Positions 3,006 through 36,517 are shown, counted from the stretch's first letter. The stretch is 64,000 nt of DNA from a virus (IMGVR_UViG_3300047300_001121:17389-81388), one strand, 5' to 3'. Numbers and translations: made by a program. Notes: generated by a model from the letters alone, not told the origin.

Positions 3006-3239
3006 ATGAGCTTCAAAAAACCCCGACTAAAAGCAAACCTTGCGGCTGAGGGATCCGTGTCAATTCCCGCAGAGTGGAGAGAACTTGATGGCCTGGTCCG
3101 AGCGGACATCCTGAAGGATTGGATCGGCATCCTGCAAATTGAGTACGACATCGCGGTTCTGGAGATGATTGATGGACCCGACCGAAGGCTTAAAGCTGCC
3201 ATCCTGAAAAAAAAGCTGGCTAAATTTGTTCAACACTGA
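3006..3239 (+). CDS. Hypothetical protein
   Basis: Tightly packed operon ORF. Confidence 0.6.
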   Translation: MSFKKPRLKANLAAEGSVSIPAEWRELDGLVRADILKDWIGILQIEYDIAVLEMIDGPDRRLKAAILKKKLAKFVQH

Positions 3240-3249
3240 GGAGTACACC

Positions 3250-3462
3250 ATGGGCGGATTCGTAACAAAATCTTTCACTTGCATTGATGGCCGCTACGAG
3301 GTCACCGAGTACGGCAAGGGCACAGCCTACCTGGTCGAGGACAGCAAGACCATGAAGAGCTTCTACGTCCAGGGCGATGACGCCCAGACCCTGCGCAATG
3401 ACAGCCAGGAGTTCACCAACAAGCACGCCATTGTCGAGACGATGGCAGCCATAGGGGAGTGA
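3250..3462 (+). CDS. Hypothetical protein
   Basis: GAGGAG RBS. Confidence 0.65.
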   Translation: MGGFVTKSFTCIDGRYEVTEYGKGTAYLVEDSKTMKSFYVQGDDAQTLRNDSQEFTNKHAIVETMAAIGE

Positions 3463-3464
3463 GC

Positions 3465-3596
3465 ATGGCGGCCGAATACGACCCGCACTGGCCATTCCCG
3501 CAATACGACGAGAACGGCAAGCAGCTGCTGCCACCGCCGCCACCAAGGCGCAAGAAGCACCTCGAGCTCGAGGACATTGAAGATGCACCAATGTAA
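3465..3596 (+). CDS. Small WPFP-motif protein (absent from ORF track)
   Basis: MAAEYDPHWPFPQY...EDAPM; GGGGAG RBS. Confidence 0.55.
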   Translation: MAAEYDPHWPFPQYDENGKQLLPPPPPRRKKHLELEDIEDAPM

Positions 3597-3605
3597 GGAC
3601 TGAAA

Positions 3606-4334
3606 ATGGAACGTGAATTATTGCGCCGGGCCGCGGTGGCCCTGAATGACTGGACCCACACTTATGCGTCGGAGCTCTGCGACTCCGAGCGCGTGGCACA
3701 GGCCTGGGCTCGAATTGAGGCGGCCGGCGGCACCGTTGCATACATCGCCGACTTGGCATCGGAAATCAATTCATTTCTGGCGCAGCCGGAGCAGAAGCCA
3801 TTGAGATGCAGGTCAGAGCCTTGCGTAAACGACAACAACATAGGGGCGTGTCGGAGATGCAAGAACTCCAGCGAGTTTCTTTCGTGGAATGACCAAGGGT
3901 CGCGGGAACTGGTGGCGTATGCCGACAAGATCGCGTTCGAGGACGCCATGAAAACCGGCAAGGGGTGCGACGTGTGGCCGACAGCTGGCGACTACGAGGC
4001 GCGCACCGGCCGCAAACTGATCGAACTTCGCACCCAACCCCAGACGCAGCAGGAGCGCACACCTGGAGGCGTGAATCTCGCGGATTACGACTACGACGAC
4101 GGGAGCTTCAAGGCGAAGAAAGAGCGCTTGCCACATGTCGCCACCAGCGACACATCGCGAACTCGTGTCGACGAAACCGCAAAACAGCAACATGACCCGC
4201 TGCCCAAAAGCGAGAGCTTAAAACACAAATACAACGCGCACAAAAAATATCCGTGGTTCTGTGCCGATTGCGGCTACCCAGAACATGAATTACTTATGCA
4301 CACAGCCGCCCACGGCATCAAGGAGACCGAATGA
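3606..4334 (+). CDS. Mosaic hypothetical protein
   Basis: AAGGA RBS; ends AAHGIKE; ATGA overlap with next gene. Confidence 0.65.
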   Translation: MERELLRRAAVALNDWTHTYASELCDSERVAQAWARIEAAGGTVAYIADLASEINSFLAQPEQKPLRCRSEPCVNDNNIGACRRCKNSSEFLSWNDQGSRELVAYADKIAFEDAMKTGKGCDVWPTAGDYEARTGRKLIELRTQPQTQQERTPGGVNLADYDYDDGSFKAKKERLPHVATSDTSRTRVDETAKQQHDPLPKSESLKHKYNAHKKYPWFCADCGYPEHELLMHTAAHGIKETE

Positions 4335-19768: not shown

Positions 19769-20281
19769 ATGAAGGTCAAAGACCAGATCAAGGTGCGTCG
19801 CGAGCAGCTGGGCATCAGCGTCAACGAGCTCGCAAAACGTCTTGGTGTGTCTTCTCAGGCCATTCGGCACTGGGAGAACGGGCGCAGTTTCCCGGGTAAG
19901 TCGAAGACCGCTGCGCTGGAGACGGCGCTGAGCCTCAACATCGACTGGACCGAGGGCTCCAGGGCCGCCGCCAAGCGGCCGCAGATTTCGGGTCTGATTG
20001 ACCCCAACGATGTCTCGCTGCTGCTGAACATAGCGCGGCTGCCGACGCCGGCAAAATCACTCATCGCCGACCTGGTCGAGATGTACGTGACGCTGGACGG
20101 ACGTGCGGGCAGCTTCGCGCATCGAGGTAAAGAGAGCAGCGCAGAGGCTTTTCACGAAAAAGAATCGCAAGGAGAAAGTGCCCGTGGTACGAAAGCTACA
20201 AGAGCACCCAAGCCGGGTGCAAAAGGCAGCAAAAACGAAGAGCCCGACAAGCGTCATTCAACTCGTCGAAAGGCGGCGTGA
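19769..20281 (+). CDS. XRE-family HTH repressor (CI-like, no S24 peptidase)
   Basis: RREQLGISVNELAKRLGVSSQAIRHWENG; divergent from the replication operon. Confidence 0.8.
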   Translation: MKVKDQIKVRREQLGISVNELAKRLGVSSQAIRHWENGRSFPGKSKTAALETALSLNIDWTEGSRAAAKRPQISGLIDPNDVSLLLNIARLPTPAKSLIADLVEMYVTLDGRAGSFAHRGKESSAEAFHEKESQGESARGTKATRAPKPGAKGSKNEEPDKRHSTRRKAA

Positions 20282-20477
20282 CCCGCAGATCATCGAGCAT
20301 TTGCAGGCTCTCCTGGAAGAGGCGAGGCAGGGTAAGGTGGTTGGGTTCATCGCCGCGGTCCACTACGGTGGCAAGGAGTTCGGGTACGTTGGGTCGGGTT
20401 CGATGTGCGACTGCCCAACGCTCGGGATCGCGTCGGCGCACAAGCTCGCAACAAAACTGTTGCATCACAACAAATAG
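20178..20477 (+). CDS. Hypothetical protein overlapping the repressor 3' end
   Basis: AAGGAG RBS plus GTG; LQALLEEARQG. Confidence 0.65.
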   Translation: MPVVRKLQEHPSRVQKAAKTKSPTSVIQLVERRRDPQIIEHLQALLEEARQGKVVGFIAAVHYGGKEFGYVGSGSMCDCPTLGIASAHKLATKLLHHNK

Positions 20478-20489
20478 TTGACGTATACT
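20460..20489 (+). promoter_or_regulatory. Promoter of the ncRNA array with tandem operators
   Basis: TTGCAT-18-TATACT; operators at 20449 and 20468. Confidence 0.6.
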
Positions 20490-20734
20490 GGGAGCACGAA
20501 TTGCCATTCGCCATCTCGTAGATGTGGTCCGGCGCAATGCCGGGACTCCTAGACAGCGTGCTGCAGCTGAATCTACGGCGCAGATGACACCGGGAAAGAC
20601 TGGGCCATCACACCAGCGGTAGCGCGTATTGCAAGCGCGCGGCGATCACCGCCAGGCAAGTTGCCTCCTCATCGTGCAGGGAAACCGACGGTGAAGTTTG
20701 GAGGGGGCGCCGGGAAAGCACCGGCCCGCTGATG

Positions 20735-20849
20735 TGATGGTGAATGCGCGAGCTGACGTGACCGAAGGAACCTCGGGCGGATAGGACAAACGGGTCGCAA
20801 CCGTACCTTGTAACGCCGCCATGCCGGAGATCAGCGCCGGCCACCATCA
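20735..20849 (+). ncRNA. C4 antisense RNA-like element
   Basis: TGATGGTGAATGCGC-GCTGA...GCCGGAGATCAGCGCCGGC-CACCATCA matches the recalled C4 consensus; GCTGA/TCAGC loop pairing. Confidence 0.7.
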
Positions 20850-21304
20850 AAGTGCAGGCCGTATCGCGTAGCAAAGCCCGGGGATCGCAAGGTCGGCTCG
20901 GTGGCTCCGGTGAAGACAACCGCGATGACGCCCGGGAAAGACCGGGGTATGACGGCTCGTCGATGTGTCAACGATCAGGGTTCGCCGTCCTCGCCCTGAT
21001 GCCGGACGATACGTAACCGGCACCAACAAGGAAGCGGCTCAGCCAAAGCGCAGTCTCGTGAACGGGGGCTGTTAACCTGCTGAGGTCGGGCGCGCGTCAC
21101 CGTGCCGGGGGCTGTATCCCGTGGGCCGCTTCCTTGTTGGTGATTGCGTTGGATAAATTCGGCTTCTCAGGTAAGGATACGCCCTGACACCAACACCCAG
21201 TGCGCGCTGGGATACCACGCGATGACAACGTACGGAAAGACGTGCGCGGATCGCTGTAAGGCCCGCTGGGACCGACGAGAATCGGATGCGGATGGAAGTT
21301 CCGT

Positions 21305-21332
21305 AGGGCTCGCTTCGGCGGGCCCTTTTTTT
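21305..21332 (+). terminator. Intrinsic terminator
   Basis: AGGGCTCGC-TTCG-GCGGGCCCT followed by a T run. Confidence 0.9.
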
Positions 21333-21344
21333 GTGGTGAGTATG

Positions 21345-21383
21345 CAACAAACAGTTGTGACGCCAACAAAAGGTTGCGATAAT
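21345..21383 (+). promoter_or_regulatory. Promoter with tandem operators
   Basis: TTGTGA-17-GATAAT; CAACAAACAGTTG and CAACAAAAGGTTG. Confidence 0.65.
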
Positions 21384-21410
21384 GGTGACCCGAGTTTGAA
21401 GGAGGTTCAA

Positions 21411-21548
21411 ATGTTTCACTGGATGTGGTTGATCGTCACCCTTGAAGTCGGCTTCATGCTGGGTCTTCTTGTGGCCGGCCTGATTCACACGGCGCGCACG
21501 GAAGATGACTGCGAGGAGGCCTGCAGCAAGCAGTCCTTTGGTGTGTGA
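21411..21548 (+). CDS. Small membrane protein
   Basis: AAGGAGG RBS; single TM helix. Confidence 0.6.
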   Translation: MFHWMWLIVTLEVGFMLGLLVAGLIHTARTEDDCEEACSKQSFGV

Positions 21549-21922
21549 AGTGTCAGCACTGCGGCCATTCTGAGACCGACGTCGTCGAGTCGCGTGTCCT
21601 CATGGGCGGTGCATACGTGCGCCGCAGACGCAGCTGCCCTGAGTGCGGCAAGACATTCTCGACCTACGAAATTGATGGCGGCATCTGGGGCACGGTGAAG
21701 AAGTGGGCCCTGGGCAGTCGCCTGCCGGCGCTCGAGAAGAAGCACAAGCTCAATCGCCGCAACGCCAAGATCGTGGCCATGATCAAAGCCGGCCACCAGT
21801 ACAAAGACATCGGCAAGCAGTTCGGCATCGCCAAGACAACTGTCAGCCATATAGCCAGGCAAGCTGGCATCCCGTCGCGCAAGCGACCCAAGATCGCAAC
21901 CCCATGGAGCGGCCTCGTATGA
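21545..21922 (+). CDS. NrdR-type zinc ribbon fused to HTH
   Basis: MKCQHC...VVESR...RRRRSCPECGKTFSTYE; no ATP cone. Confidence 0.7.
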   Translation: MKCQHCGHSETDVVESRVLMGGAYVRRRRSCPECGKTFSTYEIDGGIWGTVKKWALGSRLPALEKKHKLNRRNAKIVAMIKAGHQYKDIGKQFGIAKTTVSHIARQAGIPSRKRPKIATPWSGLV

Positions 21923-36446: not shown

Positions 36447-36517
36447 AGCTCGAGAGCGGAATCGAACCGCTGTCCCAGGTTTTGCAGACCTGTGCCTAAC
36501 CACTCGGCCACTCGAGC
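36447..36517 (-). tRNA. tRNA-Cys(GCA), CCA not encoded
   Basis: GCTCGAG acceptor stem, CAGGT-CTGCAAA-ACCTG, GGTTCGATTCC, U73. Confidence 0.9.

Follow-up and report, generated by a model that had tools for sequence, protein, structure and literature searches.

A modular non-coding RNA transcription unit in a freshwater phage joins a double-pseudoknot core to a widespread phage RNA cassette

Here we describe a plus-strand unit of ~840 bases free of ORFs (20496-21332) that runs from a conserved, operator-bearing promoter to a strong intrinsic terminator, with stem-closed modules placed back to back (Table 1). The unit is a real, non-coding, modular structured-RNA transcription unit, and it contains members of two covariation-supported RNA families, neither of which is in Rfam 15. 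One is a promoter-proximal core with two pseudoknots; the other is a cassette family found in more than 120 IMG/VR contigs, 121 named phages (HK620, mEp460 and Stx2 phages among them) and many E. coli prophages. The explanation we favour, tentatively, is that this autonomous phage transcription unit makes a precursor of stable excised RNAs that would act in trans.

The window, i.e. the entire 64-kb stretch of DNA that was analysed, corresponds to bases 17389-81388 of a phage record of 81,388 bp which CheckV classifies as complete. The phage was assembled from a freshwater metagenome, its genome has a GC content of 60%, and protein similarity links it to phages of Xanthomonas and Burkholderia.

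Table 1. Coordinates of the RNA unit, its parts and its surroundings (positions counted from the first base of the window)
Feature	Position	Strand	Basis or remarks
HTH_3 regulator gene	19769-20281		5' of the RNA unit; Pfam
Small conserved ORF	end at 20477		upstream of the RNA unit
Promoter P1	20448-20489	+	read from sequence; layout conserved in 11 relatives
Promoter P1, palindrome GCAACAAAACTGTTGC	20448-20463		overlaps -35
Promoter P1, -35 TTGCAT	20460-20465		18-nt spacer to -10
Promoter P1, operator-like CAACAAATAGTTG	20468-20480		in the spacer
Promoter P1, -10 TATACT	20484-20489		putative start ~20493-20497
Core RNA, four hairpins and two pseudoknots	20511-20607	+	model R2, pairing table
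Core H2	20511-14/20524-27
Core PK1	20517-23 with 20571-77
Core H3	20529-33/20539-43
Core single-stranded ACUCCUAGA	20545-53
Core H4	20554-57/20566-69
Core PK2	20561-64 with 20580-83
Core GAUGAC	20583-88
Core GAAAGA-loop hairpin	20590-20603
Stem-closed multi-branch module	20605-20740	+	z -5.35, inverted repeat I2
sRNA-17-family cassette	20736-20848	+	model R1, covariation
Cassette stem P1	20736-42/20842-48		then AAU
Cassette stem P2	20747-50/20757-60		loop AGCUGA
Cassette variable insert	20761-20822
Cassette stem P3	20823-27/20837-41		loop AGAUCAGCG
Cassette loop-loop pairing	20752-56 with 20831-35		GCUGA with UCAGC, 5 bp
Orphan module	20853-20960	+	closed by AUCGCG/CGCGAU; z -0.46; repeat D2
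End of module 20853-20960	20924-29; 20931-20946		GAUGAC; second GAAAGA-loop hairpin
Linker, two small hairpins	20975-21021	+	z -1.18, not significant
Orphan module	21021-21142	+	21-nt inverted repeat I1 (95% complementary) around four short hairpins; z -6.0
Orphan module	21143-21246	+	z -1.53; ends in GAUGAC and the third GAAAGA-loop hairpin (21229-21246)
3' tail and intrinsic terminator	21247-21333	+	terminator scan
Promoter P2	21345-21383	+	TTGTGA, 17-nt spacer, GATAAT (21355-21383); found by promoter scan
45-codon membrane ORF	21411-21548		downstream of the RNA unit
NrdR-type zinc-ribbon/HTH gene	21545-21922		downstream of the RNA unit; Pfam
CAACAANNNGTTG sites	1601, 2446, 4817/4836, 8139, 20468, 21345/21364, 23542, 29471, 54503/54517, 62573

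The transcription unit and its setting

An initial annotation had proposed, from the sequence of the window, an array of distinct structured RNA modules that is non-coding and has a promoter and a terminator of its own, and these points stand. A consensus promoter scan misses promoter P1 (TTGCAT-18-TATACT), as its -35 is too weak, but the layout with a palindrome over the -35, a CAAC-N5-GTTG palindrome in the spacer and the -10 element is kept in every relative. The terminator at 21305-21326 has a 9-bp stem with 7 G-C pairs and a UUCG loop, followed by T7 (U-tract from 21327), and is homologous in two relatives, L004 and L005. The verdict that the region contains no credible ORF is borne out by the lack of any Pfam or PHROGs match for its seven ORFs on both strands and by six relatives that lack the cassette region entirely, having a core and a terminator only (L012, L024-L028).

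Downstream of the terminator, promoter P2 repeats the pair of operator-like palindromes of promoter P1; it is conserved in relatives and is predicted to drive the 45-codon membrane ORF and the NrdR-type gene. At both promoters, the -35/-10 spacer is filled by the motif CAACAANNNGTTG, for which the window contains 28 matches with at most one mismatch, compared to 4.4 expected, most of them intergenic. This enrichment across the window, mostly between genes, points to CAACAANNNGTTG as the probable operator of a transcription regulator acting phage-wide, and not only an immunity operator. The unit is downstream of the HTH_3 regulator gene. Its description as lying 'behind the repressor' carries less weight than it seemed to, because the window has the operator motif in at least ten further places.

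When folded as a whole, the unit is more stable than its shuffled versions on the plus strand (z -2.6), compared to z -1.4 on the minus strand. Seven closed folds had been proposed within it, and in individual folds each of the seven segments indeed closes on itself; only two of them, however, have exceptional fold energy (20605-20740, z -5.35, and 21021-21142, z -6.0), and both contain long inverted repeats. For 20512-20603 and 20735-20849 the support comes from covariation in homologues instead of energy, and for the remaining three (20863-20946, 20975-21021 and 21143-21246) the fold energy is not significant and homologues were not found, the one recurrent feature being the GAUGAC motif with its GAAAGA-loop hairpin. 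The array contains no tandem repeats and no iterons. A ToxI-like RNA of a type III toxin-antitoxin system was considered and rejected, given the absence of tandem repeats and the nature of the flanking genes (HTH regulator, small membrane ORF, NrdR-like gene).

Searching Rfam 15 with the window at the gathering score, and with the region 20300-21500 at E ≤ 10, returned only terminator-driven sub-threshold noise and no match to C4, put, DicF, GOLLD/ROOL, HEARO, riboswitches or self-cleaving ribozymes, a screen that is not exhaustive, because Rfam also missed a hammerhead-like core in a related array (L029). A blastn comparison of the whole region with named phages gave no match at E 1e-5, and scans of genome contigs for homologues of the region gave no real match.

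Several known phage RNAs resemble the unit in part. C4 and CI are small structured phage RNAs, encoded in a leader near the immunity region and processed by host RNases. The window unit is likewise small, structured and located in a leader near the immunity region, but it is a multi-module array with a different fold. The suggested relation to P1/P7 C4 or P4 CI (RF01695) found no backing, as these searches gave no such match even at E ≤ 10 and there is no excess of complementary sites: in a search for antisense targets, exact complementary 11- to 14-mers in the rest of the window were no more common than in shuffled sequences. DicF is a small RNA cut out of the transcript of an early operon, dicBF of the lambdoid prophage Qin, and GOLLD and ROOL are large ornate phage RNAs that are often located beside tRNAs; the window unit matches none of the three in Rfam, and its variable module content argues for independent units rather than one large fold of the GOLLD or ROOL kind.

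Constant core and exchangeable cargo among relatives

We located relatives through flanking proteins and DNA patterns in viral and metagenome contigs. Comparing related phages for gain and loss of units had been proposed as a check, and it separates the six core-only relatives, in which the unit is only ~140 nt long and consists of a promoter, the ~100-nt core, a terminator and the second promoter, from others that carry modules between core and terminator: the window (~840 nt), L004 (~1050 nt), L005 (~520 nt), L003/L015 and L014, with differing module sets. At L001 the corresponding slot (3155-3658) is occupied by a homing-endonuclease gene with HNH_3 and AP2 domains where the window has RNA cassettes. 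The core is thus the constant part in all relatives, and the slot between core and terminator takes exchangeable cargo.

This group of GC-rich phages provides a natural series from the core only to the core plus up to ~1 kb of cassettes. In this series a constant core can be told apart from exchangeable cargo, a distinction that was not available from the E. coli loci. The leaders of N-less E. coli prophages are, like the window unit, chains of stem-closed modules with an sRNA-17-type cassette, and in both cases the element ahead of the chain has the same H2 loop and AAUGUGC pairing and a conserved ACUCCU. The window differs in belonging to a freshwater phage with 60% GC, in having a unit-specific terminator with a second promoter behind it, and in the minimal-to-expanded series among its relatives; the similarity of the cores is below significance (R2 E 0.2-0.6). 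What the window adds to the E. coli loci is therefore a distant GC-rich lineage, that series, a double-pseudoknot model of the core and covariation for all three cassette helices.

A core RNA with two pseudoknots

The core is a previously undescribed RNA family that is not in Rfam 15. Covariance model R2, built here, recovers 11 members, among them the window core with 82.9 bits (E 1e-22) and L047, which is outside the seed and was found at E 1e-10. Helices H2, H3 and H4 covary among the 11 members. In PK1, the seven bases of the H2 loop pair with seven bases located 3' of GAAU (7/7 in the window, CGUAGAU/AUCUACG), and the 11 members have five complementary versions of this pairing: GGCACAU/AUGUGCC, UGCACAU/AUGUGCU, CGUAGAU/AUCUACG, GGUAGAU/AUCUACC and GGUACAU/AUGUACC. 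The cores of L003 and L015 are nearly identical, yet both PK1 strands differ (GGUAGAU/AUCUACC and UGCACAU/AUGUGCU, respectively), and it looks as if discrete PK1 'alleles' may have been exchanged between phages. Since MAFFT places L003 and L015 one column off, the automatic pair count is too low for PK1, and the per-sequence table is the better record. In PK2, the CUGC of the H4 loop pairs with GCAG (4/4 in the window), with a compensatory switch to CUGG/CCAG in L047. The conserved elements of the cores are the single-stranded ACUCCU(A/G)G, GAAU, GCAGAUGAC and the loop of the GAAAGA hairpin.

The ACUCCU sequence (window 20545-20553; L095:2262-2272) is complementary to a Shine-Dalgarno sequence and is invariant in the E. 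coli prophage leader and in 11/11 cores. The gene that comes first downstream has a strong RBS to which ACUCCU is complementary; a search for co-variation of ACUCCU with the RBS of the downstream gene gave nothing convincing.

The main rival to the precursor reading concerns the core only and is not mutually exclusive with it. The core could be a cis-acting, put-like processive antiterminator that would fold in the nascent RNA close behind the promoter, bind RNA polymerase and allow it to pass the terminator at 21305-21326 and later ones into the early operon, the cassettes being passengers in a highly transcribed leader. We regard this as a serious possibility, if rather an unlikely one. HK022 put is an RNA of ~70 nt with two stem-loops and a short triplex that acts in cis on RNA polymerase via the beta' zinc-binding domain, and putL lies just downstream of PL (PMC9378689); the core, too, is structured and promoter-proximal, starting ~15 nt past the putative start site in 11/11 relatives, at the beginning of the early transcript of phages with no obvious N gene. 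A similar element, with the same H2 loop, an AAUGUGC partner and ACUCCUU, opens the leader downstream of CI in E. coli prophages that lack N, a weak resemblance by the R2 E-values given above. In those prophages at least one terminator precedes the early genes, and a second promoter is not obvious. Cassettes between core and terminator would be tolerated by an antiterminator that acts independently of distance, but not by a riboswitch, and the riboswitch reading of the core was rejected because 0.4-0.9 kb of cassettes separate core and terminator in several relatives. Against a put-like function, the terminator of this phage group has behind it a second, conserved promoter that carries the same operators, and read-through is therefore not required. 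Moreover, the core has ~100 nt, four hairpins and two pseudoknots, unlike put with its two stems, ~70 nt and no pseudoknot (PMC9378689), and the family cassette of HK620 resides in a late leader under Q/qut control.

The sRNA-17-family cassette

The second family in the unit is represented by a cassette that scores 77.5 bits (E 2e-19) with covariance model R1, also built here, and occurs as a single copy in the 81-kb genome. The family scaffold is closed by a 7-bp stem, after which come AAU, a 4-5-bp hairpin (loop GGCUGAU), an insert and a 5-bp hairpin (loop AGAUCAGC) that is stacked on the closing stem, and the P2 loop (G)GCUGA(U) is complementary to the P3 loop AGAUCAGC. Inserts of 34-164 nt share neither sequence nor fold, and the scaffold is otherwise nearly invariant. 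'Constant scaffold, variable interior', proposed in the initial annotation for the array in general, is thus literally true for the cassette; the array itself is not of the tandem-repeat type.

Covariation, whose absence would have told against the initial annotation, is present in this cassette as it is in the core, and for every helix it was seen in a set whose search pattern left that helix free. Stems P1 and P3 covary in the set fetched by the 5' half: 99% of cells are paired, there are 79 double changes, and 0/500 shuffles reach as high. This alignment was fitted to the model, a procedure that favours the structure. The double changes affect 5/7 pairs of P1 and 3/5 pairs of P3 (76 distinct sequences). 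For P2, covariation comes from the set obtained with the 3' half, and the P3 loop is conserved even where the search pattern left it out.

The family is very widespread and essentially unstudied; it is absent from Rfam 15 and has one published member, sRNA-17. Patterns of 22 bases from the 3' and the 5' end of the cassette occur in 66 and at least 120 IMG/VR contigs, respectively, and copies are found in 121 named phage records with Klebsiella, Escherichia, Salmonella, Pseudomonas, Erwinia, Aeromonas and Burkholderia as hosts; none was found in lambda. The copies occupy different places: between qut and tR' in HK620, directly after the CI gene in mEp460 and an Stx2a phage, and 5' of the SSB gene in Burkholderia phage CSP3. 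An unannotated 531-bp E. coli leader carrying the cassette matches in part 2616/5426 complete E. coli genomes and over at least 80% of its length 459, counts that hold for the entire leader stretch rather than for the cassette by itself. Of 120 distinct copies, 19 are followed by a terminator within 100 nt, and 24 by an RBS with a start codon within 70 nt.

The published member, sRNA-17 of E. coli K1 RS218, comes from an mEp460-like prophage and was mapped by RACE and Northern blot as a 193-nt RNA; its 'full length' primers start with CGTTGTGGTGAATGCGCAGGCTGATGCGC at the base of stem P1 and end at the terminator (PMC7719688). As these primers span the Stx2a/mEp460 locus from the base of P1 to the terminator, the 193-nt RNA corresponds to the family cassette plus terminator. 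The authors reported no Rfam match and described no family or structure; the read counts in their own table are very low, and trans effects rest on one deletion transcriptome (PMC7719688). The two RNAs have the same scaffold, CGTTGTGGTGAATGCGCAGGCTGATGCGC being the family P1 plus P2, and in each case a repressor-type gene precedes the gene-free stretch that contains the RNA. sRNA-17, which ends at the terminator after P3/P1, was treated as a single linear sRNA with an ArcA-regulated promoter of its own (PMC7719688), whereas the window copy is internal to an array, has another insert and GAUGGUG in P1 instead of GUGGUG, and is not directly followed by a terminator. Papers on the Pas/STnc100 prophage sRNAs and on HK022 put do not describe the element.

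The layout of the cassette resembles that of a tRNA, with a 7-bp closing stem, a linker of 2-3 nt, a 4-bp hairpin, the insert, a stacked 5-bp hairpin and interacting loops, and all 25 tRNA genes found within -700/+500 nt of the 120 distinct copies are on the cassette strand, in support of the strand and the RNA nature of the cassette. A tRNA identity was rejected, since ARAGORN calls only genuine neighbouring tRNAs and never the cassette at 60 family loci; the sole tRNAs that Rfam reports for the window are at 1338-1410 and 36447-36517. The cassettes could instead be decoys or sponges against host defence or RNA-processing proteins, such as tRNA-targeting nucleases or RNA chaperones, with the tRNA-like scaffold as bait and the insert as the product of an arms race. 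Besides the layout and the co-located, co-oriented phage tRNA genes, this would fit the extreme diversity of the inserts and their shuffling between unrelated phages, as illustrated by the window and the unrelated contig L057, which have nearly identical inserts, and the predicted early expression of the unit from an operator-controlled promoter. Nevertheless, we consider the decoy reading improbable: ARAGORN does not recognize the cassettes, their loops pair by Watson-Crick complementarity and have no D/T-loop motifs, neither a 3' CCA nor a 7-nt anticodon-like loop is conserved, the inserts showing no consistent anticodon-like pattern, and no defence or partner gene is consistently adjacent to the family copies.

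The remaining modules of the array

The multi-branch module upstream of the cassette is closed by a 15-nt inverted repeat (20605-19/20726-40) whose 3' arm overlaps stem P1 of the cassette by 5 nt. GAUGG at 20736-20740 can pair with CCAUC either in the upstream arm (20605-20609) or in its own 3' strand (20844-20848), and therefore both stems cannot form at once; in the global MFE fold, stem P1 of the cassette is not formed. The arms and the terminal hairpin of this module are common to L004, L015, L047 and L086, and 34/138 family copies have an upstream stem-closed module of different sequence that likewise overlaps the first five bases of P1. The overlap implies competing folds or ordered processing and may reflect a structural switch or a processing order.

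For the other four modules (20853-20960, 20975-21021, 21021-21142 and 21143-21246), the searched collections contain no homologues; 75 contigs share 16 bases of the 5' arm of 21021-21142, and the partner arm is present in 0/75. The long duplex of the latter module is a candidate RNase III substrate. Three modules of the window, the core among them, end in a punctuation hairpin of the form (U)GRCA, a 4-6-bp stem, GARAGA, the return stem and RCYAUCA (starting at 20590, 20931 and 21229). About 30 further loci contain the same hairpin, in most cases on the strand of the cassette; its usual place is 170-240 nt upstream of the cassette's 3' hairpin. Judged by sequence, readings of the GAUGAC motifs as K-turns, CsrA sponges or hammerheads are not supported.

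The notion that the region is a DNA-level element, such as an origin or recombination sites, or mosaic junction debris with no RNA function, to which short repeats at the cassette ends (CCAUCA/UGAUGG), the mosaic content between phages and a replication initiator gene ~2 kb away might point, is hardly credible in view of compensatory changes that keep the helices, including the two pseudoknots, strand-specific model matches, the unit's own promoter and terminator, the absence of iterons and tandem repeats, and the detection of a family member as RNA (PMC7719688).

A possible precursor of excised RNAs

In the precursor reading, promoter P1 would be switched, probably together with many other phage promoters, since it carries the recurrent CAAC-N5-GTTG operator of the phage, and would give rise to a primary transcript of ~840 nt that ends at the strong intrinsic terminator. 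The ~100-nt core with its two pseudoknots forms the constant promoter-proximal part of this transcript, followed by the cargo, which here comprises six stem-closed modules, one of them of the sRNA-17 family. Host endonucleases might then cut at the bases of the closing stems and free the modules as stable small RNAs. The freed RNAs could act in trans on components of the host or of competitors, with the insert providing specificity and the scaffold providing stability and processing signals.

We favour a precursor of independent stable RNAs for three reasons. First, the cargo varies between close relatives. Second, the cassettes sit in highly transcribed leaders and tRNA clusters of very different phages with unrelated downstream genes; that these genes vary from phage to phage argues against a leader dedicated to one gene family. 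Third, one member, sRNA-17, accumulates as a discrete RNA with its 5' end at the base of the closing stem. Several of the findings above weigh against this reading: the three modules for which neither fold energy nor homologues speak, the antisense search that gave no excess over shuffles and no target, the 5-nt overlap of the upstream closing stem with stem P1 of the cassette, and the very low read counts and single deletion transcriptome behind sRNA-17.

A more far-reaching version would see in these units an exchangeable RNA-cassette system of Proteobacteria phages, in which the core would define a 'landing slot', tRNA-shaped scaffolds would present hypervariable inserts swapped among unrelated phages, and the whole would operate as programmable decoys or guides against host defences or rival phages. 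We regard this as a long shot; if true, it would be an RNA counterpart of integron-like cassette arrays. The two families also touch on the questions of how temperate phages lacking N deal with early terminators and what role phage-borne tRNA-like RNAs have.

Modules at related loci

Two further observations were made in related arrays. At L029:3500-3580, which is on the same contig as L003 and is also represented in L015, a stem-closed cassette contains a complete hammerhead core, consisting of CUGAUGA, a 5-bp stem II, GAA, the A15.1-U16.1 pair, GUC and a split stem I. It is the only GC-rich match among the fetched loci when both strands are scanned, and Rfam 15 gives no match to it at E ≤ 10; though unscored by Rfam, it offers a precedent for self-processing inside a cassette of a relative. 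The other observation concerns a module shared by L004 (5020-5230), L047, L053 and L015, which follows the family cassette, starts with AAGGCUGGAUGACUUCAUCC and ends in a GAAAGA-loop hairpin.
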